Positions 24,907-46,139 are shown, numbered from the stretch's first letter. The stretch: DNA of 64,000 nucleotides from Armatimonadaceae bacterium (GCA_030447685.1 JAUJOK010000009.1:4543-68542); one strand, 5' to 3'. Numbers and translations are program-made. The notes: generated from the sequence alone by a model not told the origin.

Positions 24907-24924
24907 GCCTCCCCCGCCTGCCCC

Positions 24925-25100: not shown

Positions 25101-26642
25101 TTGACGCTCCGCCGGGCGCGATGGTACACTGGAACCGTCATGGCGACCACCCCGACGGCTCCTCCTTCCGATTCTTCGCCTCCCACCAGCGCCCGGCGCG
25201 AACGGTTCGGACTCAAGGCGCGCATCAAGCTGCGCCTCGCGCTCGATATACCCCGTGCGGCGCGGCATTCGTTCCTGTGGGACAGCATCGCCGGGATGTG
25301 CGCCGGGGCGTACATGGGAATGACCTTCCCCTTCTTCGTCCGCATCGCGCGCGGCGAACTGAACGCGCCGGAAGCCACCATTGCCGTGATGACCGCCGCC
25401 CCCTTTATCGGCAACCTGCTTTCTCCCCTGTGGGCACGGCAGATGGAGGGAAAGAGCAAGCTCCCGTTCGTGCTCGGCTCATGGATTCCGGCGCGCGCGC
25501 TGCTTTTTCTGATGCCGCTCGCAACCTTCCCGGCGCTGTTTGTGGCTCTGGTATCCGGTCTTCAGTTTATCGGGACGATCTCGTCACCGGCATACACCAC
25601 GCTGATGCGCGACATCTACCCGGATCGCGCGCGGGGGCGGCTGCTGGGATACGTGCGGGTCGGAGCGCAGACCTTCATGTTCCTGGCGACGCTGACGACG
25701 GGCCGCCTGCTCGACTACCAAATTTCGTACCGCTATCTATTCCCGGTCGCGGGCCTGCTGGGGCTGGCGGCAGCTTTTTCGTTTTCTCGTGTCCGACCAC
25801 TTTCCGCCGAGGCCCATGTCACCGAAAGCACGCGCCGCCTGAGCGCGCACGAATTCATGCTGGACACGCTTTCCATCCTGCGGGAAAATGTCGGCTACCG
25901 CTGGTTTGCGCTGTCGGTATTCACCTACGGTTTCGGCAAGCCGGGGTGGTTTAAGAACGCCCTGTCACGTATTGCTGCTGAACGACAACGGCTTCGCTCT
26001 AACCGTCTTGAAACTCGCCGCTCACGCGCAATAGACTCCCCTTCGCTCTTGGTGCAGATGTTTTCGATACTCCGTAACAACATCGGCTATCGGTGGTTCG
26101 CTTCTTCGGTCATGGTATATGGATTCGCGAACCTGGCTATGGTGCCGCTTTACCAGCTCTTTCAGGTCGACGTGTTGAAGATAAGCAACACGCAAATCGC
26201 GAACCTGGCAAACTGTACATCGCTATCCGCTATTGCAGGGTCATTCTTTTGGGGGCGTTATATGGACAGGCACGGATCACCCAAAGCCGTGTTTCTTTCC
26301 ATCAGTATCGTGGCCCTGATTCCCTTTATCTACCTGTCAGCGAAGTCGGTAACATGGCTCTTGATTGCTGCGGCGCTCTCGGGATTTGGCTTCGCTGGTA
26401 TCGAGTTGTCGTATATGACGAGCATCCTCTACTATTCGGAGCCAGGTCGGGAAGCCCAGTATCAGGCTTTACACTCTCTGCTCGTCGGGATTCGGGGACT
26501 CATCGCCCCATTGTTGGCGATTGCGCTGTTAAAGCAGGTTGGCTATGGGCCGATGTTTCTGGCAGGTGCCATCGTTATGTTATTCGGCGCATTTTTGCAG
26601 CTACTGGCTGTCCGCATTGCTCATCGGACGCAGCCTTCCTGA
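25101..26642 (+). CDS. MFS transporter, chimeric: native high-GC 5' two-thirds and a low-GC foreign 3' third with a partially duplicated TM6-like segment
   Basis: 513 aa, 12 or more TM helices. 'LSILRENVGYRWFALSVFTYGFG' (high GC) recurs as 'FSILRNNIGYRWFASSVMVYGFANLA' after a hydrophilic insert 'KPGWFKNALSRIAAERQRLRSNRLETRRSRAIDSPSLLVQM'. GC drops to about 52% from about 25960 to the stop. Confidence 0.8.
   Translation: MTLRRARWYTGTVMATTPTAPPSDSSPPTSARRERFGLKARIKLRLALDIPRAARHSFLWDSIAGMCAGAYMGMTFPFFVRIARGELNAPEATIAVMTAAPFIGNLLSPLWARQMEGKSKLPFVLGSWIPARALLFLMPLATFPALFVALVSGLQFIGTISSPAYTTLMRDIYPDRARGRLLGYVRVGAQTFMFLATLTTGRLLDYQISYRYLFPVAGLLGLAAAFSFSRVRPLSAEAHVTESTRRLSAHEFMLDTLSILRENVGYRWFALSVFTYGFGKPGWFKNALSRIAAERQRLRSNRLETRRSRAIDSPSLLVQMFSILRNNIGYRWFASSVMVYGFANLAMVPLYQLFQVDVLKISNTQIANLANCTSLSAIAGSFFWGRYMDRHGSPKAVFLSISIVALIPFIYLSAKSVTWLLIAAALSGFGFAGIELSYMTSILYYSEPGREAQYQALHSLLVGIRGLIAPLLAIALLKQVGYGPMFLAGAIVMLFGAFLQLLAVRIAHRTQPS
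25992..26001. repeat. 10-bp sequence CTTCGCTCTA at the left MFS junction; identical copy at 45579-45588 (candidate att core or crossover site)
   Basis: 'cggCTTCGCTCTAacc' at 25992-26001 and 'tatCTTCGCTCTActt' at 45579-45588. Each lies at the boundary between native-looking and foreign-looking MFS sequence; spacing 19,587 bp. Confidence 0.35.
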
Positions 26643-26740
26643 CTGAGCCGTACGGTCGTGCCTCCATGCCCCTTCAGTCCCTTACGCGTCCCGCCCTGCA
26701 CACATCCAGCCCGCCTTGGGGGCAAGTTCTCACGGGGCGT

Positions 26741-26756
26741 GCGATTGACAATAGCA
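26741..26756 (+). promoter_or_regulatory. operator-like inverted repeat GCGATTGACAATAGCA upstream of the blaI-like gene (contains a TTGACA -35-like hexamer)
   Basis: One mismatch from the perfect copy TGCTATTGACAATAGCA at 28252-28268. 25 nt upstream of the blaI-like start. Confidence 0.45.
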
Positions 26757-26780
26757 GATACGACTGATATACTTGCGGAT

Positions 26781-27218
26781 ATGCTGTCCCCCCGTGCTAC
26801 ACGCCGTTTCGCACCCGCGAAAACGGGCCTCGTTGCTCCACTCGGAGAGCTGGAACGAGCGGTCATGGCAGTTGTGTGGTCGCATCCTGCCCCGATGAAC
26901 GTAAGTGATGTTCATGCCGCTCTTGCCCACGAACCGCGCGTGGCATATACCACGGTGAAAACCACACTGGAGCGCCTGGCACAGAAAGGCATCCTGGTAC
27001 AGAGCAAGTCGGGGAAAGCTTATCTGTATCACGCGGTAGTGTCCGAAGCGGAACTGGAGCGGCGTATCGTGACGGCGGCGCTGGATCGTCTTGTGGAGCA
27101 GTTCCCGCAGGCGGTCGCGTCGTTCTTTGTTCACCCTGACCCGAATGTTTCGCAGGCGCAGCTCGATCTGTTGCGGGATGCTATCGAGCGGCGGCGGGAG
27201 GGCGAGGATGATGCCTGA
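26781..27218 (+). CDS. BlaI/MecI/CopY-family (Penicillinase_R) winged-helix transcriptional repressor
   Basis: 'LGELERAVMAVVWSHPAPMNVSDVHAALAHEPRVAYTTVKTTLERLAQKGILVQSKSGKAYLYHAVVSEAELERRIV' is the classic BlaI fold text. Overlaps the next gene by 11 nt. Confidence 0.8.
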   Translation: MLSPRATRRFAPAKTGLVAPLGELERAVMAVVWSHPAPMNVSDVHAALAHEPRVAYTTVKTTLERLAQKGILVQSKSGKAYLYHAVVSEAELERRIVTAALDRLVEQFPQAVASFFVHPDPNVSQAQLDLLRDAIERRREGEDDA

Positions 27219-28188
27219 TCTGTGCCCTATCGTCGCTGCCTTCGCCTTCGCCTATAGCGCGGCCCTGCTCGGCGTCGGTGCCGCGTTGTTCACCACCGCT
27301 TGGTTCGGGCGGAGCCGCCGCGCACCGTCCGCGTTAGAAGCGGCGTGGTGCGCCCTGTTGCCGCTGGTCGCCATTGGGGTGCTGGTCACCATTGCCGTTT
27401 ACGAACCCCACGCACTCGTTGGCAGTACCGCTTCTCATGACCTGTGGCACCTGTGGGCCGAGCGCCTGCACCAAATTCCCGCCTCTCATGGCACGCTGCA
27501 CGCAGCGAACGCTGCCTCGCTGTGTGTCCTCGCCATCTGCCTCGGCAGGACCGCTTACGCCCTGTCGCGTGCTCAGGCATTTGGCAGCGGCCTGCGTTTC
27601 CTCAGCAGCGACCCGCTCCCAGACGTGGCTAACCCTGCCGTGTACTGCCTGCCTTCGGACAAGGCCCTGTGTTTCACCGTGGGCGTACTGCGCCCCCGCG
27701 TGTATCTGACGACGGGTTTGAGGGAGCGGCTGTCCCCGCGGGAGCGTGACGCCGTGCTCGCCCACGAAGCGGCCCATGTGCGGAGGCGCGACGGCCTCTT
27801 GAGCGTCGTTCTCGTAACCTTTTACAACCTGTTCCCGCTGCCTGGCGGATGGCGGCTTTACCACGGGTGGGTCGCCTCTACGGAGCGCGCCTGCGACGCC
27901 GAGGCAGCACGCTCCGTGGGAAGCTCCTGCGATGTCGCCGCCGCCCTGGTCACCGTGGCGCGTCTTGCCCACTCACAGACCCTGCCTGGGGCGGCCTCGT
28001 TCGCGGCGTCGCGGCCCGAGGATGTAGCGGCAAGGGTCCAGGCGCTGCTCGAACATTGCCCGCTCGCCCCGCGCGCCCTGGCGCGGCACCGCATCGGCCT
28101 GGCGGTGCTTGCGGCGCTGAGCTTCTCGGGCCTGCTCGCGGCGTATCCTGTCATCCTGCACCTTGCCGAGATGTTTGCCTACCACTGA
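27208..28188 (+). CDS. BlaR1-like M56-family zinc metalloprotease signal transducer, lacking a penicillin-binding sensor domain
   Basis: 326 aa. TM helices, then 'GVLRPRVYLTTGLRERLSPRERDAVLAHEAAHVRRRDGLLSVV' with an HEXXH motif (AHEAAH), then more TM helices. Translationally coupled to the blaI-like gene. Confidence 0.8.
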   Translation: MMPDLCPIVAAFAFAYSAALLGVGAALFTTAWFGRSRRAPSALEAAWCALLPLVAIGVLVTIAVYEPHALVGSTASHDLWHLWAERLHQIPASHGTLHAANAASLCVLAICLGRTAYALSRAQAFGSGLRFLSSDPLPDVANPAVYCLPSDKALCFTVGVLRPRVYLTTGLRERLSPRERDAVLAHEAAHVRRRDGLLSVVLVTFYNLFPLPGGWRLYHGWVASTERACDAEAARSVGSSCDVAAALVTVARLAHSQTLPGAASFAASRPEDVAARVQALLEHCPLAPRALARHRIGLAVLAALSFSGLLAAYPVILHLAEMFAYH

Positions 28189-28251
28189 TCACTACCTTCG
28201 TATCGGAGTATCCATGACCATCATGCCCACCGTTTGTTTAACGCCCGCGAC

Positions 28252-28268: not shown

Positions 28269-28293
28269 GACTCGGACACGAGGGGAGGCGTTG

Positions 28294-29583
28294 ATGCTGT
28301 GCCATTGGCCCATCCTCATAGCCTGTCTGTGTACTGCCAGCATCGCCCTGGCACAACCGTCCGCCATTCGAGCGAAGAGTGATATGTTCGCTGCGGACGA
28401 GGCAGTACAGGTTGCGCTGGAGCAAAGCCCCGCTCTGGGCGCAGCACGCCGCCGTGTCGAGGCCGCGACTGCGGCGTTGCGCGGTGCGGGAGCACCGTAC
28501 ACGCCACGGGTGGAACTCGCGCCTGGCGCGGGCTTTACGAATGGGAACGCCCTGCTGTCGCAGCAGTTCGACATTGCGGGACTGCGCACGGCACAAACCC
28601 AACGCGCCGCAGGTGAGCAGAGTGCGGCGCAAGCGCAGGCAGATGCGGTGCGTCTCCAAGTGGTCCTGGAAACACGCACCGCCTACTTCGATCTGGTGCG
28701 GGCCAGGGCGAGCGAGGCGACGGCTCGGGACGCCGTAGGGCTTACCGAGCAGGTGCAGACCATCGTGCGACGGCGTGTCCAGCTCGGGGAAGCGCCTGCG
28801 GTACAGGCGACGCGCGCCGAGATCGAAGTCGCCCGTGCCCAGCAGGAGTTCGTCCGCGCGCAGGCCGATACCCAGGCCCGTGCTGCGATTCTCAATCGGC
28901 TTCTTGGACGGGAGCGACAGCAGCCGATTCAGCCGACGGACAGCCTGACCCTGCCCCCCGCACCACGCCCACTGGAAGAGCAGGTCGCTGAAGCTATGCG
29001 TTTACGCCCCGACCTTCGGGCGGCCCAGGCGCGGCTCGCGGCGTTGCAAGGCGAGGTGGAGGTTGCCCGCGCCCAGGGCAGACCAACCCTGTTCGCGGAG
29101 GTGGCAGCGGATACCTGGAGTCTGGATCGCGCCCCCTTTAGCGGGCGCAACCTGGGTGTACAGGGTCGGCTGAACTTTCCACTTGGTCGCGACCGCGCCC
29201 AGCGTGCCGAGGTGGACCGCACCCGCGCGGTTGCGCTCGCGCAGGAGGCCGAGGTAGAGGTGCTGCGCCGTGCGATTGCTCGCGAAATTGAACAGGCCGC
29301 CGCCGATCTTACCGCCTCACGCCAGATCGCACAGAACTATGAGCAGACGATCCTGCCCCGAACCGCCCAACTGCTGAGCGCCACCCGCGCGGGTTTCGAG
29401 AGCGGTTTGACGACCTTCTTGGAAGTGCTGGAAGCCCAGCGCGTCGCGAGGCAAACCCAGGTCGAGTACCAGACGACCCTGTTTGAGGCCGTGCGTGCCC
29501 GCACCACCCTGGACGCCGCGCTGGGGGCCGCCATTCTCGGCCCGACCCCAATGCCCCCGATCCCCGCAAGACAAATGAGGTAG
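28294..29583 (+). CDS. TolC-family outer membrane efflux protein (CzcC/CusC-like OMF)
   Basis: Signal peptide, two OEP repeats, coiled-coil rich. 'gaggggagg' RBS before TTG/ATG 28291/28294. Confidence 0.85.
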   Translation: MLCHWPILIACLCTASIALAQPSAIRAKSDMFAADEAVQVALEQSPALGAARRRVEAATAALRGAGAPYTPRVELAPGAGFTNGNALLSQQFDIAGLRTAQTQRAAGEQSAAQAQADAVRLQVVLETRTAYFDLVRARASEATARDAVGLTEQVQTIVRRRVQLGEAPAVQATRAEIEVARAQQEFVRAQADTQARAAILNRLLGRERQQPIQPTDSLTLPPAPRPLEEQVAEAMRLRPDLRAAQARLAALQGEVEVARAQGRPTLFAEVAADTWSLDRAPFSGRNLGVQGRLNFPLGRDRAQRAEVDRTRAVALAQEAEVEVLRRAIAREIEQAAADLTASRQIAQNYEQTILPRTAQLLSATRAGFESGLTTFLEVLEAQRVARQTQVEYQTTLFEAVRARTTLDAALGAAILGPTPMPPIPARQMR

Positions 29584-29586
29584 CCC

Positions 29587-31905
29587 ATGAAAGCCAGAAC
29601 CATCACCCACGTTTTCGCACTGCTCGTCGGCGCGCCGCTGCTGCTTCTGTTGCCTGCCCGCGCCCAGGAGGAGGCGGGCCACATGCACGGCCCCGATGGG
29701 CGGCATATCGCCGTCGCCAGCACCTTCGGGGGCCAGGCAGCAGGGCAGCGGAGCATCCTGAGCCACCACGACCTGATGATTACCGATTTGCGCCAGCCTG
29801 GTCCCGACAGGAACGGCAAGGTGGTCGAGGGCTGTGACGTACATTCGGTGATCCACAAGAAGGGTGACCCGAAAGCGGTCATTCACCGCGAGCACAACAC
29901 CTTCGAGCCTGAAAACGGTGTGTACGGCTCGCACATGATGTACCGCGAGCCAGGGGAGTATGTCATTATCGAGAAGGTCACTCTGCCCGATAAGCAGCAG
30001 GTGACTCTGGAGTTCCCGATATGGGTGCCCGCTCCCCAGGGTCAGGCTGAGCACGCCCATCACTCCCCCTGGTGGACAGTACTCGGAGTTGCCGCAATCC
30101 TCCTCGCCATACTGGGTGCATTTCTTTTGGGGAGGCGCAGCGGGCGGCGAACGGTGGCGATGCTGTCTATCGTCGCTCTGGTCACGGGTTCCCTCCCCAT
30201 TGTTCCCACGGCTCATGCGCAGGAAGACGGAGAAGAAGCGGGTCATATGCACGGCCCTGACGGGCGGCACGTCGCCGTTGCCAGTACGTTCGGGGGCGGC
30301 AATGCGCAGGAGCCGCTACGGGCCTACCCCACCGCCGACCGACAGGAGGCCGCCGTCCAGACCCAGGGACACTACCGCTTCCGCCTGTCCATCGAGAACG
30401 AGGAAATGGCCCCGCCTGACCCCGATGTCGTCACCATCTCGTCCGATGCGGCGAAAACCGTCGGGCTGACAACAGTCGCGGCGCGGGCGGCGCGGGGGAC
30501 GAGCGCACTGACGACAACAGGTCAGGTGAAGCCAAACCCGAACCGTGCCGCAACCGTGAACGCGCGTGTCGCGGGGCGCGTGGTGCGCGTAGGGGTGACG
30601 CCAGGAGATGAGGTGAGCGCGGGCCATGTCGTCGCTGTGCTCGACAGCGCCGAAATAGCCCAGGTCCAGGCTGATTTACGCCGAGGCGCGTCTGAGATCG
30701 CCCAGTCGGACGCCGCTGCCGCGCGCGCCCGCTCCCAAATTGCCGAGGCACAGGCCAACCAAGAGCGCGCCCGTGCCGAGGCAAGTCAGGCGCAGGGGCA
30801 GGTGCGGAACGCCGAACGTACTCTGGCACGCCAGCGGGAACTTGCGCGGTCAGGCGCGTTCGCTTCGGGTCCCGTCGAAGCCGCGCGTTCTGCCGTTGCG
30901 ACTGCCGAGGGCGAACTGAACGTTGCGCGCACAGCGCTTGCAACCCTGGAAGCGCAGGCGCGCCGCCTGGAAACAGGCGTCGCCGATGGTGTGGTATCCC
31001 GCCGCGAGGCCGAGACTGCTCAGAGCGCCGCCGCCCAGGGCCGCACCCGCGTCGAAACCGCCCAGCGGCAACTAACGATTGCACGGGCGGCGCTTGCCCG
31101 TGAAGAACAAATCCAGCGCCGCGGGCTGCGCGACGCGCGCGAAGTGCAGCAGGCCCAGGCCGATCTTGCCGCAGCCCAGGCTGCGCTGCGAGCCGCGAAC
31201 GCCGTGGTTCAGAGCGAGGCACGGCGGGTTCAGGCTGCCCGCGGCGGCGCGGCGGAGGCAGAGGCAACGCGCACACGGGCGCGCACCAATCTCGCTTCGG
31301 CGCGCAACCGATTGCGGTTGCTCGGCGCAACGCCCAGCGGCGGCAGTCAGGTGACGGTGGTGACACCACTGGGGGGCGAGGTGGAGGCGCGGCCCGTCAG
31401 CGCAGGCGAAGTGGTGGAGGCGGGGCAGACGCTCGCACGCATCCTGAACACGGACAGCGTGTGGGTCGAGAGCGACGTGTTCGAGAAAGACTTGCCACAA
31501 GTGCGCGTCGGCCAGGCCGTGACTATCGCCGCCGACGCCGTTCCTGGCCGCACCTTCCAGGGGCGCATTTCTTATATTGGTGGCGCGGTGAACCCTGAAA
31601 CTCGCGCCGTGCGTGTCCGCACCGCAGTCACCAACCCTGGCGAGGTGCTCAAGCCCAATATGTTTGTTCGGGTGCTTGTCGGCGCAGGCCGAGGTCGTGC
31701 GATTCTCGTGCCCCAGGAGGCTGTCCAGGAGGACGGGAACGAGCAGGTCGTCTTCATCCAGGAAGGGGAAGGCTACCGCCGCCGCGCTGTTCGGATCGGC
31801 GCGACGCTGGGTGACATGGCAGTGATCGAAGGGGGGCTGAAGGCGGGTGACAAGGTGGTCACGCAAGGCGCGTACCAGTTGCTCGCCTTGGCGAAGAAAG
31901 GATAA
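29587..31905 (+). CDS. RND efflux membrane fusion protein (CzcB/CusB-like) with two tandem N-terminal HMHGPDGRH-motif modules
   Basis: 772 aa. Signal '...LLLLPARAQEEAGHMHGPDGRHIAVASTFGG' then a roughly 130-aa module. A second hydrophobic segment follows, 'WWTVLGVAAILLAILGAFLL...AHAQEDGEEAGHMHGPDGRHVAVASTFGG'. Then canonical HlyD/MFP lipoyl, hairpin coiled-coil and beta-barrel ('VVAVLDSAEIAQ...', 'RVGQAVTIAADAVPGRTFQGRISYIG'). Confidence 0.85.
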   Translation: MKARTITHVFALLVGAPLLLLLPARAQEEAGHMHGPDGRHIAVASTFGGQAAGQRSILSHHDLMITDLRQPGPDRNGKVVEGCDVHSVIHKKGDPKAVIHREHNTFEPENGVYGSHMMYREPGEYVIIEKVTLPDKQQVTLEFPIWVPAPQGQAEHAHHSPWWTVLGVAAILLAILGAFLLGRRSGRRTVAMLSIVALVTGSLPIVPTAHAQEDGEEAGHMHGPDGRHVAVASTFGGGNAQEPLRAYPTADRQEAAVQTQGHYRFRLSIENEEMAPPDPDVVTISSDAAKTVGLTTVAARAARGTSALTTTGQVKPNPNRAATVNARVAGRVVRVGVTPGDEVSAGHVVAVLDSAEIAQVQADLRRGASEIAQSDAAAARARSQIAEAQANQERARAEASQAQGQVRNAERTLARQRELARSGAFASGPVEAARSAVATAEGELNVARTALATLEAQARRLETGVADGVVSRREAETAQSAAAQGRTRVETAQRQLTIARAALAREEQIQRRGLRDAREVQQAQADLAAAQAALRAANAVVQSEARRVQAARGGAAEAEATRTRARTNLASARNRLRLLGATPSGGSQVTVVTPLGGEVEARPVSAGEVVEAGQTLARILNTDSVWVESDVFEKDLPQVRVGQAVTIAADAVPGRTFQGRISYIGGAVNPETRAVRVRTAVTNPGEVLKPNMFVRVLVGAGRGRAILVPQEAVQEDGNEQVVFIQEGEGYRRRAVRIGATLGDMAVIEGGLKAGDKVVTQGAYQLLALAKKG

Positions 31906-31918
31906 GGGACTGCCGTTC

Positions 31919-34900
31919 GTGTTCAACCGCATCATCGAGTTCAGCATCAAAAACCGTGTGCTCGTCTGCGCCGCCGCGCTCATGCTCCTGGTATACGGCG
32001 CGCGGGTCGTCACACAGATGCCCGTGGATGTGCTGCCTGATCTGAACCGCCCCGTGGTCACGGTCATGACCGAGGCGCATGGACTTGCCCCCGAAGAGGT
32101 CGAGCCGCTTGTCACCTTCCCCATCGAGACGGCAATGAACGGCGCGGCGGGGGTGCAGCGGGTTCGTTCGGCTTCCAGCGCGGGGCTTTCCATCGTCTGG
32201 GTGGAGTTCGACTGGGACACCGACATCTTCCGCGCGCGCCAGGTCGTCAACGAAAAGTTGCAGACCGCGCAGGGACGGCTGCCCACGGGCACGTTGCCCT
32301 CACTCGCCCCTGTATCCTCCATCATGGGCGAGGTGCTGCTTGTCTCGCTGTCGAGCAAGGACGGCACCACGCCGCCCATTGAGGTGCGCTCGCTCGCAGA
32401 CTGGGTGGTGCGCCCGCGCCTCCTGGGCGTGCCTGGCGTGTCGCAGGTTGTGCCCATCGGGGGTGGGGCCAAGCAGTTCCAGGTGCTCACCAACCCCGCC
32501 CGCCTCCAGCAATACGGCGTGACGCTCGACCAGTTGACCGAAGCCGCGCGCCAGTCCAACCTGAACACGTCGGGCGGGTTTTTGCAGACGCCGCAGCGCG
32601 AGGCGATCATCCGCATCACGGGCCGCGCCCGCTCCCCCCAGGACATCGCCCGCACCGTTGTCGCTCAGAAAAACGGCGTGCCTGTAACCATTGGGCAGGT
32701 GGCGGAGGTCCGCTTCGGGGCGGGACCGAGGCGCGGTGATGCCAGTGTAAGCGGAGCGCCCGCCGTCATCCTCAGCGTTCAGAAGCAGCCCAACGCAAAT
32801 ACCCTGGAACTGACCCGCGCGCTCGACAAGGCGCTCGGCGACATCCAGGCTGCGCTCCCCCGCGACGTGACGATAAACCGCGACCTGTTCCGCCAGGCCA
32901 CCTTCATTGAGGCCGCCGTGGACAACGTGAAGGAGGCGCTGCGCGACGGCACCATCCTGGTGTTTGTCATCCTGCTCGCCTTTTTGCTGAACCTGAGGGC
33001 TACTTTCATCTCGCTCGTCGCCATACCGCTGTCCTTCGTAATCGCCATGCTGGTTCTGGACCGCTTCGGCATCTCGGTCAATACGATGACGCTCGGTGGG
33101 CTGGCGGTCGCTATCGGGCTGGTGGTGGACGACAGCATCGTGGACGTGGAAAACGTGGTGCGGCGGCTGCGGGAGAACCGCGCGAAGCCTGCTCCACTAC
33201 CGCCACTCCAGGTGGTCTTTGAGGCAAGCGCCGAGGTCCGAAACAGCATTGTGTTCGCCACTGTTATCATTGTGCTGGTCTTCGTGCCGCTCCTGTCACT
33301 GGAGGGCATGGAAGGGCGCGTGTTCCTGCCGCTGGGCCTGGCCTTTATTACCGCACTGACCGCTTCCTTGCTCGTTTCGCTCACGCTAACGCCCGCTCTC
33401 TGCGCCTTTCTGCTCGCCCGCACGGCTAAAAAAACATCCGCCGATCACGCCGAGGACACCTGGCTGGTGCGCCACTTAAAGCGTGGGGACGAGCCGCTGG
33501 TGCGCTGGGCCATTCGCCATCCCACTCCCGTGCTCGCAGGGGCTGCGTTGCTGTCTCTCGCCGCGCTCGCCCTGCTGCCGCGGATGGGACGTGAGTTCCT
33601 GCCCCCGTTCAACGAGGGCAGCCTTTCCATCAGCGCGATCCTGCCTCCTGGTACGGGCCTAACTGAATCGAACCGAATAGGGACCGCTATCGAAAAGCAG
33701 CTCCTGTCCGTGCCTGAAGTTGTCCATACGGGGCGGCGTACGGGGCGCGCTGAGATGGATGAGCACGCCGAGGGCGTCGGCTATTCCGAAATCGACGTGG
33801 GTTTACGTGCGAGCCGACGCTCCCACGGACAGGCGGTCGCCGAGATACGCCGAAAGGTGGAGGCTATCCCTGGCGCGGTGGTCGCTGTCGGACAGCCCAT
33901 CTCGCACCGACTGGACCACCTGTCGTCGGGAGTGCGCGCCGCACTTGCCGTAAAAGTGTATGGCCCCGACCTGGACGCGCTGAGGAGCCGTGCTCAGGAG
34001 GTCCGAAACGTTATGTCCCAGGTGCCTGGCGTCGTGGATTTGCAGGTCGAGCCGCAAATTGAGGTGCCTCAGGTTCGGATCGACATCGACCGAGACCAGG
34101 CCGCGCGCTACGGTCTGACCCCAGGGGAACTCGCCGAAACGCTGGAAACCGCGCTGGGCGGCCATGTGGTCGGGCAGGTCTTGCAGGAACAACGCACCTA
34201 TGACCTTGTGGTCTGGTTTGACGAGGCCGCCCGAGGCGATACGGATGTGATCGGGCGGACACTGGTAAGCACGCCGTCAGGGGCGCGCGTACCGCTCGGG
34301 CAGTTGGCACGGGTTCGCAAGGCGGCGGGGCCGAACACCATCAACCGTGAAAACGTGTCGCGGCGCATCGTGGTCCAGGCCAATGTCCAGGGTCGAGACC
34401 TGAACAGCGTCGTGACTGACCTCCAGCGGCGGATGGGCGCGGTGCAGGCGGCGTGGCCCACGGGCTACTTCGTTGAGTACGGGGGCCAGTTCGAGAGCCA
34501 GCAGAACGCCATGAGCCGCATCCTGCTGCTTGGAGCGTTCACCGTCGTTGCCATCTTCCTTGCGCTTTATGTTGCCCTCCAATCGTGGCGGCTCGCCCTC
34601 CAAGTCATGGTAAACCTGCCGCTTGCTCTCGTTGGCGGTGTCCTTGCCGTTTACCTGACAGGCGGCGTGCTGTCCGTGGCCTCGTTGGTCGGCTTTATCA
34701 CTCTGTTCGGTATCGCCACCCGCAACGGCATCATGATGCTGTCCCACTATGTCCACCTGATGCGCGAGGAGGGGGAAGCCTTTGGGGAACACATGATCGT
34801 GCGCGGTACGCTGGAGCGACTTTCACCCGTCCTTATGACTGCCCTCGCCGCCGCACTCGGTCTGCTGCCGCTGGCGCTTTCAGTGGGTGAGCCTGGCAAG

Positions 34901-35125: not shown

Positions 35126-35150
35126 ATTCGTTTTTCCAGGGAGTAAAGAT

Positions 35151-36164: not shown

Positions 36165-36169
36165 TTCTC

Positions 36170-36698: not shown

Positions 36699-37223
36699 CT
36701 AAGCAGATACGTTTTTCGGTGGCTGGGAGATTATCGGTGGCGGGCGCAGTTGGATACCTGCCGCGCGGAGCCACTGGTCTATCATCCAGCGTGGTGGCAG
36801 TGTGTCCCAGCCCGCGACCTCGGCAGCGCATCGGGCAATGTTTCCGAACGGGCGGTGTGACTCGGCATACAGTGCCCCCAGAGTCTCACGTGACAGCGGA
36901 CAGGGATGCGGCTGCGCCACCTGAAGATTTTCTCGCCGCAGGTCCAGCGGGTCGCCATTTTTGTGCAGGACGCGCCGCCGTGCCCCCGCCTGGGTAATGA
37001 GCCGCGACAACTGCACGCGCTTACGTTTCGCGCCCGCTTCCTGCGGGACTGAGGCGACGACCTTCAGGCCACCACCCAGGTTGTAAGTGCGCCACGTATA
37101 CCGCTCCAGCAGCGCGGCGTCCTGGGCGTCGATCACGATGGTGTGCCCGCTGGCGATTCGGGCCGTGATGGGTTGCGCTTCGACAGCGGCGCAGCCCCCG
37201 CCTTCAGTGCTCATGGCCTGCAT
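36699..37223 (-). CDS. HNH endonuclease family protein
   Basis: 'VLHKNGDPLDLRRENLQV' matches the HNH motif (H-x-N-G-D-x-x-D-N-R-x-x-N-L). 174 aa. Overlaps the czcD stop by 20 nt. Confidence 0.55.
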   Translation of the reverse strand: MQAMSTEGGGCAAVEAQPITARIASGHTIVIDAQDAALLERYTWRTYNLGGGLKVVASVPQEAGAKRKRVQLSRLITQAGARRRVLHKNGDPLDLRRENLQVAQPHPCPLSRETLGALYAESHRPFGNIARCAAEVAGWDTLPPRWMIDQWLRAAGIQLRPPPIISQPPKNVSA

Positions 37224-38148: not shown

Positions 38149-41100
38149 GCGCGGCCTCCTTCCCTTCAAACCAGGCGTACAGCGTGGGAAGCACGATCAG
38201 GGTCAGCAGCGTGCTGGACAGGATGCCCCCGATCACGACGGTCGCCAGCGGGCGTTGTACCTCGGCCCCGACCCCCGAAGACAGGGCCATCGGGACGAAA
38301 CCCAGGCTCGCCACGAGTGCGGTCATTAGCACGGGCCGCAGTCGTGTGTGCGCCCCTTCCCGAACTGCCTCAGGCACGTCCCGCCCCTCCTCGCGCAGCT
38401 TGTTGATGGCCGACACCAGAACCACACCGTTCAACACGGCGACCCCAAAGAGAGCAATGAACCCGACCCCCGCCGAGATGGAGAAGGGAAGCCCCCGCAG
38501 CAGCAGGGCGAGGATGCCCCCCGTGACCGCGAGCGGCACACCCGTAAAGATCATTGCGGCCTGCCTGAGCGACCCGAAGGTCATGAACAACAGCAGGAAG
38601 ATCAGCGCCAGCGCCAGGGGGACGACAATCAGGAGTCGCGTGCGCGCGCTCTGGAGGTTCTCGAACTGCCCGCCCCACTCGATGCGGTAGCCCGTGGGCA
38701 GTTTCACCTGCCCCGCCACCTGCGCCTGGGCGTCGGCGACGAATCCGCCCAGGTCGCGCCCGCGTACATTCGCCTGAACCACGACCCGACGCGCCCCCTG
38801 CTCACGGCTTACCTGCGCGGGCGAGGGACGGATGGCGATCTGGGCTACCTGGGAAAGCGAAACCCGCTCGCCGCCTGGGGCAGCGACGCGCAGCTCCTCC
38901 AGAGCGGTTATGTCGTTGCGCAGGGCCTCGGGCAGCTTCACCACGATGTCGAACCGGCGGTCCCCTTCGATCACCTGGCCCACGGTACGCCCGCCGATGA
39001 ACGCCTCAATTACCTCCTGCACGTCGGCGACGTTGATGCCGAACCGCGCGGCGGCGGCGCGGTCAATGGTGATCTCCAGCGTCGGCAGGCCCGTGGTCTG
39101 CTCCATCGTCACGTCCTCAGCCCCCGCCACCTTTCCGAGCACCGCCTGGACGCGGTTGCCCAGGCTGGATAGGGTTTCCAGGTCTTCACCAAACACCTTC
39201 ACGGCGATGTCCGCCTTCACGCCCGACACCAACTCATCCGTGCGAAGCTGGATCGGCTGCGAAAACGCGTAGCCCTGGCCTGGGACTTCCCTTTCCAGCC
39301 GCTCCTGCATCTGGGAAATGAGCTTTTCTTTGGTCAGGCCCCGCCGCCACTGCCCGCGATCCTTCAAGGTGATAATCATGTCGCCAACGCTCGGGGGCAT
39401 CGGGTCGGTGGCAAGCTCCGCGCTCCCGATGCGCGTGTAGGCGTCTACCACCTCGGGGAAGGACTTGACGACCCGCTCCGCCGCCCCGACCATAGCGACG
39501 GAATACTCGACCGATACGCCGGGGGGGCGGATGGGCTGGATCGCGATGGCTCCTTCGTCCAGGCGCGGGATGAACTCCGAGCCGAGCAGCGGAAACAGCG
39601 CGGCGCAGCCCAGGAAAAAGAGCACGCTTCCCGCCGCGACTATCCCGCGCCGCCGAAGCGCCCATTCCAGGGTCGGACGGTACAGGCGGTCCGCCGCGCG
39701 CAGGATCAGGTTGTCCTTTTCCCGCGTATCGCGGGACAGGCAAAGCGCGCAGAGCGCGGGGATAAGAGTGAGCGTCAGGATCAGCGCGCCCACGAGTGCG
39801 AGCGCGACGGTATAGGCCATCGGTCGGAACATCTTCCCCTCGATGCCCGTGAGGGTCATGATGGGCAGATAGACGATAATGATGATCGCCACGCCGAAGG
39901 TAATGGGCGTGCCGGGGTGTGCCGACCTCGCGCGCCGAGGCGAGGACGTTCTGGATCACCTCGGCGCGCGTCAGGGTGCTCCCCCGATGCTCCCGCGCCT
40001 CCGCCAGGCGACGGACAGCGTTCTCGACCATGACCACCCCGCCATCCACGATCAGGCCGAAGTCAATCGCGCCGAGCGAAAGCAGGTTGGCGGAGATGCC
40101 GAAGTGCTGCATCCCGATCACGGCGAACAGCATGGCGAGCGGAATGGTGCAGGCGACGATCAGCGCGCCGCGCACGTTGCCGAGCAGCAGGAGCAGCACG
40201 GCGACGACCAGGATGCCGCCTTCCAGCAGGTTGCGCTCAACCGTACCGATGGTCTTTTCAACCAGTTCGGTGCGGTCATAGACGGTCGCGAGTCGCACGT
40301 CGGGGGGCAGGGAAGCGCGCACCTGGCGCACCTTCTCGTCCACGGCAAGCGACACGGTGCGGGAGTTCGCGCCTTTGAGCATCATCGCGATGCCCAGGAC
40401 GGTTTCTTTGCCGTTGTGCGTGGCCGCGCCCTGGCGCAGTCCGCCGCCCTCGGTGACGGCGGCGACATCCCGCAGGAAGATCGGGGTGCCGTGTTCGGCG
40501 GCAACAACGATGCTCTCGATATCGCCCTTGTTGCGGACGACCCCGATACCCCGCACCAGCAGGCGCTCTGCTCCCTTGACGATGTAGCCGCCGCCCGCGT
40601 TCGCGTTGTTGCGCTCGACCGCTTCAATGACTTCACGCAGGGTCACACCCCGCGACAGCAGCCGCTGCGGGTCGATCTCTACCTGGTACTGCTTCTCGAA
40701 CCCGCCCTGGCTGTTTACCTCAGCGACTCCTGGCACGGTGCGAAGCTGCGGCTTGACCAGGAAGTCCTGGAGCGTACGCAATTCGGTCGGGCTGCGCTTC
40801 TCGGAGTCCAGGGTGTACTGGTAAATCTCGCCCAGCCCCGTCGAAACAGGGGCCATTTCGGGCGCGCCGACACCTTCGGGCAGGCTTTCCCGCGCTCCCG
40901 CGAGCTTCTCGCCCACGAGCTGGCGCGCGAAGTACAGGTTCACATCGTCGGCGAAGACGACCGTCACCTGGGACAGCCCGTACTGCGAAAGGGAGCGCAC
41001 CTCGGTTACATCGGGCAACCCTCCCAGTGCTACTTCGATGGGAAAGGTAACCAACTTTTCCACTTCGGCAGGCGCGAGGCCAGGAACCGCCGTGTTGATC

Positions 41101-41243
41101 TGGACCTGATTATTGGTCACGTCAGGCAGGGCGTCGATGGGCAGGCGCTGGAAAGCGACCAGCCCCCCGAGCACAAGGAAGACCGTCCCGATCAGGACGA
41201 GAAGGCGCTGCCGCACGCCAAATTCAAGGATGCGTTCGATCAT
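38132..41243 (-). pseudogene. second CzcA/CusA-family RND transporter, split by a 1-nt frameshift at a C-run near 39905
   Basis: N-terminal 'MIERILEFGVRQRLLVLIGT...ASAREVGTP' continues in another frame as 'ITFGVAIIIIVYLPIMTLTGIEGKMFRPM...'. Removing one C from 'acaccccggcacgccc' restores '...EVGTPGTPITFGVAIIII'. Confidence 0.8.
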
Positions 41244-41244
41244 T

Positions 41245-42963
41245 TTAGTGCGCGTGGCCCTCCGAAAGCTCGCCCTTCTGGGCTTCGGACTGGAGGACGA
41301 ACGCCCCCGCGACCACGACACGCTCGCCCGCCTTGAGTCCTTCCCTTATCTCTACCTGCGCCCCGCGCGTTTCGCCGACCTGGACTGTCCGCCGTTCATA
41401 GCCCTCTCCCTCGGCTACGAACACGGCCCGCGCGCCTTCTTCCCCGACGACGGCATTCTGGGGAACCAGGATCACGCTGCGCTTCGGGCCTGCCGCCAGA
41501 TGGACCTGAGCGAACATCTCGGGGCGCAGCCGTCGTCCCTGATTGCTTACCAGGCAGCGGGCGGCCAGCGCCCGCGTCTTCTCATCTACGCGGGTGGCGA
41601 GGGTACGCACCGTCCCTGGAAAGCGGACGTTCGGGTAGGCGGCAACCGTCACCTCGACCCGCTGACCTGCGCGCACACGGGCGACCTCCTTTTCAGGGAT
41701 ACTTGCCTGGACGATCACGCTGTTCAGGTTCTCGAGCAAAAACAGCGTGGTGCTGCGCTCCACGGTTTCGCCGAGCGTGGCGAGTTGCTGGGCGATCACG
41801 CCGCCGAAGGGAGCGAACAGGGTGATCTTGCCGCCGCTGCCCTCGGCGTGGCCCGTGCCCTCCAGGGCGTACAGGTTAGCCCGCGCCGCGATCAGCGCCT
41901 GCCGCGCGCCGTTCAGCGCCGTCAGCGCAGCAGCTTCCTCCTTCTGGGCGCGCCGCACGTCCTGCTGGGCACGGATGACACCCTGGCGCGCCCGCTGGAC
42001 ATCGCCCTCGGCGGCGCGCACCTCGGCCTCGGTCGCCTGCACGGCCTGACGGGACAGCAGGTCACCAGAGAACACGCGCCGCTCGCGGGCCAATGTCTGT
42101 TTGGCGTTCTCCACCCGCGCCCGTGCCCGCTCGGCCCGCGCCTGATCCTGGCGGTGTTCCAACTGGGCCTGCTCCAGCTCGGCGCGGGAAGCAATCCCTT
42201 CTTTGAAGAGCCGCTCCGTGCGCTGCAGCGCGACCAGATGGGTCTGCACCTCGGTCTGCGCGGCAAGCAATTCGAACTGGGCCTCGGACAGCTCGGATTG
42301 CGCCGCCTGGAGCGGGGCTTGTGAAAAGGCCCCTGCCCGCGCCAGCGCGCGCTGATTCCGTACGGCGACCTGCGCACTGCTCTGCCTGGTCTGGGCCTGC
42401 CGCACCTCGGCGCGGGCCTGTGCGACACCCGCCTGGGCCTGGTTGATTTCGGCGCGGGCGGTTTCCAGCCGTGCCTTCGCCTGCTGCACCGCAGACTCGG
42501 CCTGGTGCTCCGCCGCGTGCGCCTGCGCCACCTCGTAGCTGTCCAGGATCACGAGCGGCTGACCCGTGCGAACCGTGTCGCCCAGGTTGACCAGTACGCG
42601 CACCACGCGGCCCGCCACAGGGGGCGTGATCTTGGCGACGCGCTCGGTGCTGGCTTCTACCGTGCCAGGGACGGTCAGGATGTTCTGCACGGGCCGATAG
42701 CGCGCAGGCTCCACGCGGATGCCAGCGGTCTTCGCCCCTGCGGGATCAAGCCGCACATGGCCCTCTTCCCCATGCTCCTCATCGGTGTGCTTCTCTGTTT
42801 CCCCGTGTTCGTCCGCATGTTCGTCATTGCCGTGTTGCGCTTCTGCGCTTTCAGCGGCGACAGGGGTCGTGGAACGGACGCGCGACATCACCGCCGCCGT
42901 ACCCAGCGTCCCGAATAGAAAGGCCCCTGCGACCAGCAGGGGGGTCCGTCGGTTGGTGCTCAT
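41245..42963 (-). CDS. RND efflux membrane fusion protein (CzcB/CusB-like) with a His/Glu-rich N-terminal metal-binding tail
   Basis: 'AESAEAQHGNDEHADEHGETEKHTDEEHGEEGHVRLDPAGAK' then MFP domains; long QAxA coiled-coil hairpin. Confidence 0.85.
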   Translation of the reverse strand: MSTNRRTPLLVAGAFLFGTLGTAAVMSRVRSTTPVAAESAEAQHGNDEHADEHGETEKHTDEEHGEEGHVRLDPAGAKTAGIRVEPARYRPVQNILTVPGTVEASTERVAKITPPVAGRVVRVLVNLGDTVRTGQPLVILDSYEVAQAHAAEHQAESAVQQAKARLETARAEINQAQAGVAQARAEVRQAQTRQSSAQVAVRNQRALARAGAFSQAPLQAAQSELSEAQFELLAAQTEVQTHLVALQRTERLFKEGIASRAELEQAQLEHRQDQARAERARARVENAKQTLARERRVFSGDLLSRQAVQATEAEVRAAEGDVQRARQGVIRAQQDVRRAQKEEAAALTALNGARQALIAARANLYALEGTGHAEGSGGKITLFAPFGGVIAQQLATLGETVERSTTLFLLENLNSVIVQASIPEKEVARVRAGQRVEVTVAAYPNVRFPGTVRTLATRVDEKTRALAARCLVSNQGRRLRPEMFAQVHLAAGPKRSVILVPQNAVVGEEGARAVFVAEGEGYERRTVQVGETRGAQVEIREGLKAGERVVVAGAFVLQSEAQKGELSEGHAH

Positions 42964-44243
42964 TTCGTCCTCCTTGGTGCGGGGATGGAGATAGAGGATA
43001 GCAGGGCCGCAGGAACCGCACCTGTTGCCCGCTCCAGTTCGGCGCGGGACAGCGCCGCGGCAACCTGGGCGTCGATGAACTCGGTCTGCACCTGGCGAAA
43101 GGTGCGCTGGGCTTCCAGCAGGGCGACGATGTTCGTCCTGCCCTCCTCATATCCGATGCGGCTTGCGTCAAGGAGTCGCCGCGCCTGATCCAGAAGGCCC
43201 TGGGGATAGGCAGCGAGCACGGCGTCCGCCGCCCGCGCCTGGAGGAGGGATTGCTGAACCTCCTGACGCACCTGGGCACGGGTCGCTTCCGCGCGCTGCG
43301 ACTGGGCGCGCGCGGCCTCCTCGGCCTGGCGTACCCGTCCACGGCGACCGCCCCAATCCAGAAGCGGCAGCGTGATGGCGACTCCGAACCCGTTGTCCTC
43401 CACGCCGCCGCGCGTCACGCTTCCCGCGCGGTACTGAGGAGCCAGGTCGGGAAGGCCCTCAGCGCGGGCAAGACGCGCCTCCTGCCGCAACGCCTCCGCC
43501 TGCGCCTCGTCCGCCGTGATCTCGGCGCGGTTTTCCAGCGCCTGGCGGAGCAGGGCGTTGGTGTCGGCGGGGAGAGGGACGGAAGGAGGTTCTCCAGCCG
43601 AGACAGCACCGAGCGCGTGGTCGGGGTTTCGCCCCAGCAGCGTGTTCAGCGCACCCGCGCGCACTGCGGCCTCGCTTTCCGCGAGTGTCGCCTGCTGGCG
43701 GGCGCGCGTGACCTCGATACCTGTCTGGGTCTGCTCGATGGCGGGTCGCGCTCCCAGTTCGACCTGACGGCGGGCGATGCGGTCAAGGCTCTCAACGGTT
43801 TGAAGCAGGTCGCGGGTGAGCGCGGCCCGCTCGCGGGCGCGGATCAGCTCATAGTAGGCGGATCGCGTGGCAAAGACCAGGCCGCGCAGTTCGACCACGG
43901 CCTGGGCCTGCGCGCCCCGAAGCCGTGCCGTCGCGCCCCCGCGCCGTGCGGCGCGTGCGCCGTTCACCTCCAGCGGCTGCTGCACGAGCAGCTCCGTGTC
44001 AGACCCACCCTCGGTGAGCGCGGGCACGAAGGCGATCTCAGGGTTGGCGCGCGCTCCCGCCGCGCGGACTCCCTGCTGCGCGGCGGTGACCTCGCGGGCG
44101 GCGGCGGCGAGCCGTGGGTTATTTTGGACGGCAAGGGTGACGGCCTGCTCAACCGAGAGCGGCGGCATCGGCACAGGCAGCGGCGGCTGTGCCCGCGCCA
44201 GGGCGGGCGTCAGCCAGAAACACAGAAATAAAAACGTTCGCAC
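42960..44243 (-). CDS. TolC-family outer membrane efflux protein (CzcC/CusC-like OMF), second copy
   Basis: Signal 'MRTFLFLCFWLTPALARAQ'; OEP repeats. 4-nt overlap with the MFP start. Confidence 0.85.
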   Translation of the reverse strand: MRTFLFLCFWLTPALARAQPPLPVPMPPLSVEQAVTLAVQNNPRLAAAAREVTAAQQGVRAAGARANPEIAFVPALTEGGSDTELLVQQPLEVNGARAARRGGATARLRGAQAQAVVELRGLVFATRSAYYELIRARERAALTRDLLQTVESLDRIARRQVELGARPAIEQTQTGIEVTRARQQATLAESEAAVRAGALNTLLGRNPDHALGAVSAGEPPSVPLPADTNALLRQALENRAEITADEAQAEALRQEARLARAEGLPDLAPQYRAGSVTRGGVEDNGFGVAITLPLLDWGGRRGRVRQAEEAARAQSQRAEATRAQVRQEVQQSLLQARAADAVLAAYPQGLLDQARRLLDASRIGYEEGRTNIVALLEAQRTFRQVQTEFIDAQVAAALSRAELERATGAVPAALLSSISIPAPRRTK

Positions 44244-44343
44244 GAGAACCTCCTGACAATCCAGGGAGCCAGGGGCGGGCGAACAGAAAACGGGTGAAAG
44301 AAAAGGCGCGCCAACGCCCCAGGCTCAGACGACGAGGGGAATG

Positions 44344-44796
44344 TCAGGCGTGCGGGGGCGCGCGAAGGGACGGGGTAACAAGGGCGATGCTCGCGGTCGG
44401 GGGACCACGGCTATCAGCAGCGGGTACGGTCTGCGCGACCGTCTGGGGCGCGGCCCGAAGTACGAAGGGCGCGGGAAGCAGTGCGAGCGGCGGGACGAAA
44501 TGTGCCGCTGCGGGAACCATGCCCGTGGGCTGTTCGGTGGCGGCGGTGATAACCATATCGCAGCCGCAGTCGGCAGCACAGAGCGTTGTGTCGGCCCTAC
44601 TACCCGATAGCGGGCCCCAGCGTGGGTCGCGGCCCGCTGGCGTGGGGGAGGCGCAGCAGCACCCCAGCACGCTGGTGCTGCAAATCTGGCCCTCGCAGAA
44701 CCATGCCGCCGTCGCCGCCTGCGCGGTAAAGAGCGACGACAGCAGCACGGTCAGCGCCAAAATAAACGCGATGGGAACCCGTCTCACAGTTACCAT
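44344..44796 (-). CDS. signal-peptide Cys-rich small protein upstream of czcC-2, hypothetical
   Basis: 'VRRVPIAFILALTVLLSSLFTAQA' signal. Cys cluster 'WFCEGQICSTSVLGCCCASP...LCAADCGCD'. Pro/Ala-rich C-terminal part. High-GC, so a spurious ORF is possible. Confidence 0.3.
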   Translation of the reverse strand: MVTVRRVPIAFILALTVLLSSLFTAQAATAAWFCEGQICSTSVLGCCCASPTPAGRDPRWGPLSGSRADTTLCAADCGCDMVITAATEQPTGMVPAAAHFVPPLALLPAPFVLRAAPQTVAQTVPAADSRGPPTASIALVTPSLRAPPHA

Positions 44797-44879
44797 TATA
44801 CGCCAACAAGCCTCGTTCTCGAGGCTGCTTTCGGAAAGATCATCGAACGGTTGGGACGCGCATCAGGAACCGAGCGCCT

Positions 44880-45530
44880 GAGCGACGGCGCGCTCGACCT
44901 CTTGAGCGGTCGGCGACGCGTATCTCAACCCGCCGAATGGGGGGCGGCCAGATACCCTCCAAGACCGCAATGCCTGGAAGGGACTCGCATTCTATATGCT
45001 CTATGGTGAGGACACGCGCGAGCGTGGTTGGCCGCACACGGGATACCCGCTTACCCTTTCGCGAGGAGGCAACGGTGGACCCCGCCAGAATGCGATCTGT
45101 CAACAAGCTATGAGACGCGACAAATGACATCGAAGTAATCGCGGCCCGCGAGGAGGCGTTGGACGAAGAGATCGCGATCCTCCGCGGGATGATCACTCCT
45201 GCAACCAAGACAACCCTTGTAGCACGCATTGGGGCAGTATACAAATAACGGATACCTCTGGCCGCGAAGCGTGCCGATCTGGAGGCTGAATTGGCCGCAG
45301 TGGGCGACACTCCGCCTGCCTCCACCGAGAGTCCTGAGGTGGTGCGGATGCGCCTGGAGTCGGCCCTGCGTGGTTGGGATGACCTTACCGTCGCTGCACG
45401 GGCCGACAATGCGAAAATGTTGGTCGAGTGGGCGGGAGTCTTGGTCGGGGACGGATTATTCCATACCGAGTGTCTTGTCGTAGTAAAGTGGAAGCGGCGA
45501 GAGAACCCCGACATCCCGGTAGGATGGTAA
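44880..45530 (+). other. non-coding or degenerate stretch with short ORF fragments between the efflux island and the displaced MFS 3' end; possible recombinase or other mobile-gene remnant
   Basis: Fragments such as 'DIEVIAAREEALDEEIAILRGMITPATKTTLVARIGAVYK' and 'RADLEAELAAVGDTPPASTESPEVVRMRLESALRGWDDLTVAARADNAKMLVEWAGVLVGDGLF' in different frames; no intact gene. Confidence 0.25.
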
Positions 45531-45532
45531 GG

Positions 45533-46139
45533 GAATACAATAGATGATCGTGACTGGACCGAGGCGGAGGATAACTATCTTCGCTCTACTTGGCCCGACA
45601 ATCGTTCCTCGTGGTACGACGTAGCTGCTGGACTTCAGGCTGGGCGCACATACTTTACGGTTGCGCAACGTGTCAAGGCGCCGAACACGCAGATAGCCAA
45701 CCTGGCGAGCTTCGCGTCACTGTGGGCGATTGCGGGGTCGTTCTTCTGGGGGCGGTTCGTGGATCGGCGCGGGGCAGGACGCTCCGTGCTGCTTTCCATT
45801 CTGCTGATCACGGTAGTACCACTGGTCTACCTGGTGACACGCCGCGTTGAGGTACTGTTTTTCGCTTCCGCGCTGTCGGGCTTCGGCTTCGCGGGAATCG
45901 AGCTATCGTACATGCAAAGCATCCTGACCTACGCCGGGCCGGGGCGCGCGGCGCAGTACCAATCGCTGCACTCGCTGCTGCTGGGCGTCCGGGGCGTGTT
46001 AGCGCCGCTGGTCGGGGTTCCGCTGATGCACGCGCTGGGCTATCCGCGCGTCTTCATGCTCGCGTTTCTGGTTATGGCCGTGGGTGCCATGATGCAGTGG
46101 GCGGCGACGAAAAGGGAAATACCTCTCCGCCCCCAATAA
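45533..46139 (+). pseudogene. displaced high-GC 3' fragment of the MFS transporter (homologous to the C-terminal third of CDS 25101-26642)
   Basis: 'NTQIANLASFASLWAIAGSFFWGRFVDRRG...LSGFGFAGIELSYMQSILTYAGPGRAAQYQSLHSLLLGVRGVLAPL' aligns with 'NTQIANLANCTSLSAIAGSFFWGRYMDRHG...LSGFGFAGIELSYMTSILYYSEPGREAQYQALHSLLVGIRGLIAPL' of the intact gene. No start codon. Confidence 0.6.

Follow-up and report, generated by a model that had tools for sequence, protein, structure and literature searches.

Within the 64,000-nucleotide stretch of an Armatimonadaceae bacterium genome that we analyzed (GCA_030447685.1, JAUJOK010000009.1:4543-68542; hereafter the window, in whose coordinates positions are given), a gene for an MFS transporter is interrupted by a block of foreign DNA carrying predicted metal-efflux genes. 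The limits of this block were set by blastn comparison with uninterrupted orthologs in three other genomes, all probably Armatimonadota: L001, the ENA contig with the closest ortholog (P0008), L002 (GCA_030446525.1) and L003. All three orthologs are co-linear with the window up to 25939 and again from 45684, and 55 bp of each are left unmatched between these two points. Because the matches stop and restart at these positions, the insert spans 25940-45683, or 19,744 bp, and stands in place of 55 bp of the target, which encode 19 residues (NLMVIPLYALYQVDVLGIT in P0008). A preliminary description, made from the sequence of the window alone, had already placed an island of about 19.6 kb inside the MFS gene, and the contiguous gene in L001, L002 and L003 bears this out with a slightly larger size.

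The two native parts of the gene lie on the same strand with the insert between them. The 5´ part (25140-25939, + strand), encoding the N-terminal six-helix bundle, the central loop and the start of transmembrane helix (TM) 7, is 88.5% identical to P0008 at the amino acid level, and the displaced 3´ end (45684-46139, + strand), which retains 151 codons and the stop codon and lacks a start codon, is 87% identical to P0008 residues 228-373. The segment that now follows the 5´ part is only 58% identical to P0008 and, because the same ortholog matches both native parts at 87-88%, this low-GC last third of the open reading frame (ORF) is foreign. In the comparison with L001, at dS of ~0.8-0.9, the N part has a dN/dS of 0.082 and the displaced fragment one of 0.129. 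For most of this time, then, the displaced fragment was under selection, which makes the insertion recent on that scale. The displaced fragment had been recognized earlier as homologous to the C-terminal third of the transporter, albeit with a start at 45533; MFS homology begins only at 45684 and runs to the TAA codon at 46137-46139. Given the match to P0008, this is the native 3´ end of the gene, high in GC, and not the remnant of a paralog. Inversion or exchange with a paralog could likewise be ruled out from the arrangement of the native parts around the insert, as could a Campbell-type homologous crossover, which would not create an out-of-register duplication and would have removed the native 3´ end. 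The ortholog in L002 (P0066, encoded at 2623-3864) itself reads as frameshifted just past NTQIANL, with the remainder of the called protein out of frame; this is the position at which the native gene restarts in the window.

The foreign segment forms the left end of the insert (25940-26642, + strand, set apart by GC content, GC content at third codon positions (GC3) and identity) and supplies a central loop, TM7-12 and a stop codon, 234 codons that are joined in frame to the native 5´ part. The resulting ORF is open to 26642 from an ATG at 25140 or an alternative TTG start at 25101, as first described, and the NCBI protein P0001, encoded on a 125 kb contig, is its exact 500-residue product from the start at 25140. 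This chimera of 500 or 513 codons stays open, and neighboring genes carry stops or frameshifts. It matches Pfam MFS_1 (E=4.8e-28), and its AlphaFold2 (AF2) model (pLDDT 84.8, pTM 0.81) is a canonical MFS fold of 6+6 helices plus an inserted loop, with low confidence confined to residues 263-327, the region of the junction, the linker and the second occurrence of a duplicated motif. The composition of the gene changes at the junction: GC content drops from 0.62-0.68 to 0.50-0.55 across ~25940-26640, the low-GC last third that had been noted at the outset, and rises again right past the stop codon. The native N part has a GC content of 0.64, compared with 0.525 for 26063-26642 and 0.52-0.56 for the foreign segment as a whole, and GC3 is 0.63 in the foreign half versus 0.79 in the displaced native fragment. 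Among 5.8 billion proteins, the closest relative of the foreign half is 64-67% identical to it. Foreign and native halves are ~67% identical in DNA sequence, with dN of 0.41 and saturated dS. The foreign segment is the C-terminal half of an MFS protein that belongs to the family of the native one but to another lineage.

Although in frame, the fusion is 62 codons out of register, joining native nucleotide ~876 to foreign nucleotide ~690, and for this reason the chimera contains a duplicated motif, LSILRENVGYRWFALSVFTYGFG / FSILRNNIGYRWFASSVMVYGFANLA. The duplication had been noticed before but was labeled TM6-like; in the AF2 model, the motif corresponds to the loop helix and the start of TM7. 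As for the 41-residue linker, it has a length similar to that of the native loop and the same SR[IV] and TRR anchors, and it appears to represent the central loop of the foreign protein.

At the other end of the insert we found a decayed, doubly truncated remnant of a gene resembling those of large serine recombinases (44924-45683, + strand), detected by tblastn with P0130, a homolog of 978 residues. Residues 556-745 of P0130 match 45087-45653 with 38% identity (E=1e-29), and residues 444-473 match 44924-45013, in a different frame; the remnant thus recognized spans the zinc-ribbon/coiled-coil part plus a Myb/SANT-like C-terminal extension. It contains three in-frame stops (TGA at 45111, TAA at 45246 and TAA at 45528) and one frameshift, and it lacks ~440 N-terminal residues as well as C-terminal residues, at least ~100 compared with P0131 (883 residues) and ~230 compared with P0130. 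The ORF debris for which a recombinase search at 44.8-45.6 kb had been proposed is this remnant, and its decay agrees with the earlier impression of an old or immobilized element. The sequence from 45531 to 45683, which is in frame with the MFS fragment, belongs to the recombinase pseudogene, as does the sequence for the Myb/SANT-like stretch that immediately precedes the junction; relatives read VGWRGSGPDERPWIPEEDDWLRKTW... there.

The remnant abuts the right junction and is transcribed toward it, and the junction cuts off the 3´ end of the gene. Because it lies inside the recombinase pseudogene, the right junction is a deletion endpoint, and the true right end of the element was lost together with its attachment site. 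The simplest assumption is that the 55 bp of target were lost in this deletion as well. With this target sequence gone and the recombinase gene cut, the right junction must be considered secondary. In L005, a locus encoding a relative, 17 bp separate the stop codon of the recombinase gene from a convergent host-like gene, which is consistent with an element that has its recombinase gene at the very end.

The recombinase-like family (P0130 and P0131; L004, L005 and L006) is extremely rare. A HMMER search with the 93 residues encoded by 45249-45527 against 1.84 billion cluster representatives gave three matches only, the window's own fragment, P0130 and P0131. A tblastn search with P0130 gave nothing in plasmids or phages, no relatives were found in viral and metagenome contigs, and genome contigs contributed one locus, in a Capsulimonadales metagenome-assembled genome, which is cut off at the contig start. 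Residues 482-694 of P0130 match phrog_95, annotated "integrase" (E=5e-9), and the annotated Bxb1 serine integrase, used as a control, matches the same family with E=1.7e-136. The Pfam Resolvase match of P0130 (E=0.006) is below the cut-off, and a YxRxS motif could be discerned by eye in the family (YERQS / YIIRKS). NCBIfam gave no match for P0130 or P0131, and a search of solved structures gave coiled-coil and chromodomain matches only, none significant. These data make it likely, though not firm, that the family is serine-recombinase-like. The C-terminal extension carries a Myb/SANT-like W..EED..L...W pattern, preceded by an L[IV]KWK..VGWRG stretch whose chromodomain matches are non-significant (E ~0.5-1).

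The two end pieces of the insert are similar in composition, with GC3 of 0.62 for the recombinase remnant and 0.63 for the foreign MFS half (0.62-0.64 overall). The cargo between them has a GC3 of 0.72-0.84 and, with a tetranucleotide distance from the flanks of mostly z<2, is host-like in composition. The shared lower GC3 of the end pieces, together with the 55-58% GC of the contigs that carry recombinase relatives, suggests that both pieces belong to one backbone, contiguous across the attachment site in the circular form, with the cargo loaded between them.

The history we favor, with a probability of roughly 0.55, is that of an island, now immobilized, that relied on a serine recombinase and brought with it a replacement for one half of the gene it entered. 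An integrative island of ~20 kb would have encoded a large serine recombinase, read toward the attachment site in the circular form, and beyond this site would have lain the foreign back half of an Armatimonadota-type MFS gene, with high-GC cargo between lower-GC backbone pieces. The island would have entered the host ortholog of this gene near the start of TM7, so that the island-borne half, comprising the central loop, TM7-12 and stop codon, joined the host front half in frame. The host would thereby have kept an ORF of full length, encoding 12 helices and an additional loop of ~60 residues, and the host back half would have been displaced 19.7 kb downstream without a start codon. The right attachment site, along with the 3´ end of the recombinase gene and 55 bp of the target, would have been lost later in a deletion, and stops and frameshifts in the remaining recombinase gene and in one RND pump would have followed, leaving the island immobile. 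In this history the recombinase would have made the insertion, and the MFS half would be a target-repair module instead of chance cargo. It is very unlikely that a gene half of the same narrow MFS family would stand at the end of an island in the same orientation and frame by chance, and this coincidence therefore argues strongly for a functional link between the island's MFS half and the target. The preliminary description had likewise proposed an element that targets the 3´ end of a gene and supplies a replacement. The foreign half and the displaced native end fit the supply of a replacement, and targeting of this gene is putative. The exchange was not a clean attachment-type one, with the fusion 62 codons off and 55 bp gone.

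Several observations weigh against this history. The left junction is not an exchange at homologous positions, and ~25 residues of recognizable motif are duplicated across it. Neither attachment-like direct repeats at the breakpoints nor direct or inverted repeats at the termini of the insert were found. The serine-recombinase assignment of the relatives consists of one PHROG match plus sub-threshold signals; alignments with gamma-delta resolvase or Bxb1 integrase were not significant, although in these profile comparisons the aligned motifs sat at the expected positions. The catalytic domain is absent from the window, and the remnant itself gave no PHROG match (as a composite) and no Pfam match (as six-frame pieces of 44.2-45.7 kb). 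Searches of proteins, genomes, viruses and metagenomes gave no second island, junction or foreign half, the left junction was not found in a junction 24-mer scan of metagenomes, and no other genome was found in which a recombinase relative adjoins an MFS gene. Nor are large serine recombinases known to require long stretches of homology to their target, or to bring such stretches with them. The out-of-register junction and the absence of attachment signatures make the mechanism of insertion a proposed one.

The register shift would follow naturally if the left junction, like the right, had been formed by deletion. In such a course, a full-length gene from this MFS family was located close to the left end of the island, either to compensate for the disrupted gene or simply as cargo, and the island entered the target between native nucleotides 876 and 932; attL was then deleted along with ~690 nt from the start of the foreign gene, attR was deleted along with the 3´ end of the recombinase gene, and the in-frame, out-of-register fusion arose by chance. 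The foreign homology does seem to reach the junction, with the SRI and TRR loop anchors, as it would in a longer gene that had been cut, and the right junction is demonstrably a deletion endpoint within a gene. Still, two independent deletions are required, one of them in frame, and none of the relatives of the BlaI-BlaR1-RND cassette is preceded by an MFS gene of this kind. The presence of an MFS gene of the same family and orientation beside the insertion point is also left unexplained, unless the gene was a repair copy, which would lead back to the replacement-half island. On balance, we regard this course of events as rather unlikely.

A 10-mer, CTTCGCTCTA, occurs at 25992 and 45579 and had been put forward as a sequence common to both junctions. 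Both copies are inside the insert, 53 and ~100 bp from the breakpoints, and direct matches of at least 10 bp occur in 22.9% of random pairs of windows of 301 x 331 bp from the same sequence; it was thus ruled out as an attachment core.

The absence of an attachment signature and the loss of 55 bp of target would also be expected if no recombinase had been involved. Foreign DNA, linear or circular, might have been joined by illegitimate or microhomology-mediated recombination with deletion of the 55 bp, the fragment ending in an MFS homolog on one side and an already dead recombinase gene on the other, with weak homology, or selection for a working transporter, favoring the product. Both ends of the insert do lie inside genes. 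A further central-loop break in a related MFS gene is seen in L009 (ENA ERZ27286124, k141_548640, 1-4497), where P0121 consists of an N-terminal fragment of pdxJ fused to the C-terminal half of the transporter. The fusion point falls in the same central loop, GC content changes from 0.51 (left 1.9 kb) to 0.65 (right), and L003 matches the right part with 96.6% identity and has the same genes downstream of it. L009 may represent a second break at the MFS domain boundary, but it may also be a chimeric contig, which limits its weight here. Against joining without a recombinase, the native and foreign halves, at ~67% DNA identity and saturated dS, are too dissimilar to serve as a homology anchor, and a homologous crossover would neither keep the native 3´ end nor make the duplication. 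The family, orientation and frame of the foreign half would moreover be left to chance or selection. We consider an origin of this kind unlikely.

If the break in L009 is real, it would hint at a recurrent hotspot, as would be predicted if a rare serine-recombinase family inserted at the MFS domain boundary and swapped the C-terminal six-helix bundle, re-specifying the transporter as the efflux cargo arrived. The recombinase in such a scheme would be one with the Myb/SANT-like, possibly chromo-like, C-terminal extension. A bundle swap of this sort is, in our estimation, distinctly improbable.

Lastly, the contig could misjoin reads from the MFS genes of two organisms. The source may be a metagenome-assembled genome, and frameshifts and stops occur nearby in a MoxR-like gene and in the second RND pump. 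However, the native and foreign copies are nowhere identical over a stretch long enough to lead an assembler astray, both native halves are found in the same orientation on one contig around a coherent 19.7 kb block, and neither an in-frame junction nor a recombinase remnant is expected from a misjoin, making such an artefact very improbable.

The cargo between the end pieces of the insert begins, on the + strand, with genes for a BlaI-type repressor (26658-27218, likely start 26781; Pfam Penicillinase_R, E=1.3e-26) and a BlaR1/M56-type membrane metalloprotease sensor (27208-28188; Pfam Peptidase_M56, M48), for which no relative closer than 54% identity was found. These are followed by a first tripartite RND efflux set (28291-35125; Pfam OEP, HlyD_D23 and ACR_tran, E=1e-277), composed of an outer-membrane factor (28291-29583), a membrane-fusion protein (MFP; 29587-31905) and an RND pump (31847-35125, real start near 31910). 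Next on the same strand are a DUF1259 protein with a twin-arginine-like leader (35151-36164; Pfam DUF1529/DUF1259, E=9e-79) and a truncated N-terminal fragment of an unrelated MFS_1 transporter (36170-36508; Pfam MFS_1 positions 1-80 of 347). This fragment was ruled out as the missing front of the foreign MFS half; it is of an unrelated family and has no significant similarity to the interrupted gene. On the - strand are an ORF of uncertain function with a weak HNH-like motif (36699-37223; Pfam HNH_3, E=0.0035, below the cut-off; PHROG HNH, E=0.027), a CDF (CzcD-type) cation efflux protein (37204-38169; Pfam Cation_efflux, ZT_dimer) and a second tripartite set (38132-44243; Pfam OEP, HlyD_D23 and ACR_tran), again with an RND pump (38132-41321), an MFP (41245-42963) and an outer-membrane factor (42960-44243). 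The cargo had been listed in largely these terms; BlaI, BlaR1/M56, the two OEP-MFP-RND sets, CDF, DUF1259 and the MFS_1 fragment are all supported by Pfam, and of these assignments the HNH endonuclease is the weak one.

The second RND pump is split by a frameshift into ORFs at 39234-41321 and 38132-39892. The frameshift coincides with a 10-bp imperfect tandem duplication at 39905-39923 (GGCACACCCC GGCACGCCC on the coding strand), and it looks like a real mutation, not a homopolymer sequencing error. Upstream of the second efflux operon, ORF translation gives a small Cys-rich membrane-anchored product (44344-44796, - strand) whose N-terminus is a hydrophobic anchor and in which cysteines are clustered (CCC, CxxC-like); a site resembling a promoter is located at 44822-44795, and Pfam, PHROG and NCBIfam scans gave no family match. 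The substrate is predicted to be a heavy metal from the CDF neighbor and the His-rich N-terminus of the first MFP. In this MFP (772 residues), the His-rich N-terminal module is duplicated internally (29668-29733 and 30232-30297, + strand; EEAGHMHGPDGRH[IV]AVASTFGG, 83% nucleotide identity), with a hydrophobic stretch after each copy, and it may be a duplicated metal-binding domain. The same BlaI-BlaR1-OEP-MFP-RND cassette is present in L007 and L008, where no MFS gene was found upstream.

Chromosomal genes, for a MoxR-like ATPase, sulfite reductase and SelB, flank the insert. Just upstream of the MFS start is a 36-nt inverted repeat (24923-24958 and 25053-25088, 81% complementary, arms 94 nt apart), each arm of which holds a palindrome-like GGAGTGTGGACACTCC; the repeat could act as a paired operator or represent a REP-like element. 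Also just upstream of the MFS gene, the gene for the MoxR-like AAA ATPase (23940-24906, + strand) looks disrupted, with its N-terminal and Walker-A parts in different frames and an in-frame TAA at 24205-24207 (GTNV*EMSTG), which denotes either a host pseudogene or assembly errors. Stop-codon reassignment was ruled out for the in-frame TAA codons, as the residues aligned with them differ, being Arg in the recombinase relatives and, presumably, aromatic in MoxR. Downstream of the insert, a second dip in GC content (0.545-0.55) was seen at 47600-48200, between the genes for a sulfite-reductase-like protein and a TPR protein. Since the selenocysteine-specific elongation factor SelB is encoded at 50684-52615 (- strand), the organism probably uses selenocysteine.

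Integrative elements that enter a protein-coding gene and supply a substitute for its end are known, as for phage 21 and e14 in icd. In published accounts, SGI1 integrates at the 3´ end of trmE (PMC8409611), and dusA-specific islands sit at the 5´ end of dusA (PMC4482086). The island in the window resembles these elements in that the host gene is interrupted, an element-borne homolog is fused in frame and a full-length ORF is kept, with the displaced native end at the far junction, a recombinase-like gene, here a decayed remnant, at one end and an adaptive cargo. The icd, trmE and dusA elements have tyrosine integrases, a common core at both junctions and an exchange in register, whereas the island here has a serine-recombinase-like remnant, no common core and a fusion 62 codons out of register. 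It also differs in that a whole six-helix half (234 codons) is substituted and that 55 bp of target and one attachment site are lost.

Elements with large serine recombinases are also found in genes, among them SCCmec in rlmH/orfX, Bxb1 in groEL1, A118 in comK, and SPbeta and skin in sporulation genes. Features that are probably shared are the zinc-ribbon/coiled-coil region and a recombinase gene at the end of the element, and integration inside an ORF is common to all; Bxb1 integrase matches the same PHROG family as P0130, the homolog of the remnant. These elements, however, disrupt the gene or enter its last few codons, and we know of none that carries a long replacement of its target. The recombinase family in the window is further set apart by its rarity, its extra Myb/SANT-like C-terminal extension and the lack of a curated family model. 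With respect to cargo, the order OEP-MFP-RND, CDF and BlaI-BlaR1 is that of CzcCBA/CzcD islands with BlaI/BlaR1-like regulators, as in L007 and L008, with the difference that one of the two pumps is frameshifted here and the metal specificity is predicted.

Thus, the window contains one decayed representative of a familiar class of mobile islands and not a new mechanism. As the island is a single decayed instance that opens no new question, its value is mainly in annotation and as a lead to the recombinase clade, a very rare, uncurated, serine-recombinase-like group now flagged in Armatimonadota/Capsulimonadales. Set beside the known elements, it adds, with an empty-site control, a resistance island inside a transporter gene whose reading frame was kept and for which a whole structural half of the protein was supplied, and it illustrates how an island can become permanently fixed through erosion of its recombinase end.

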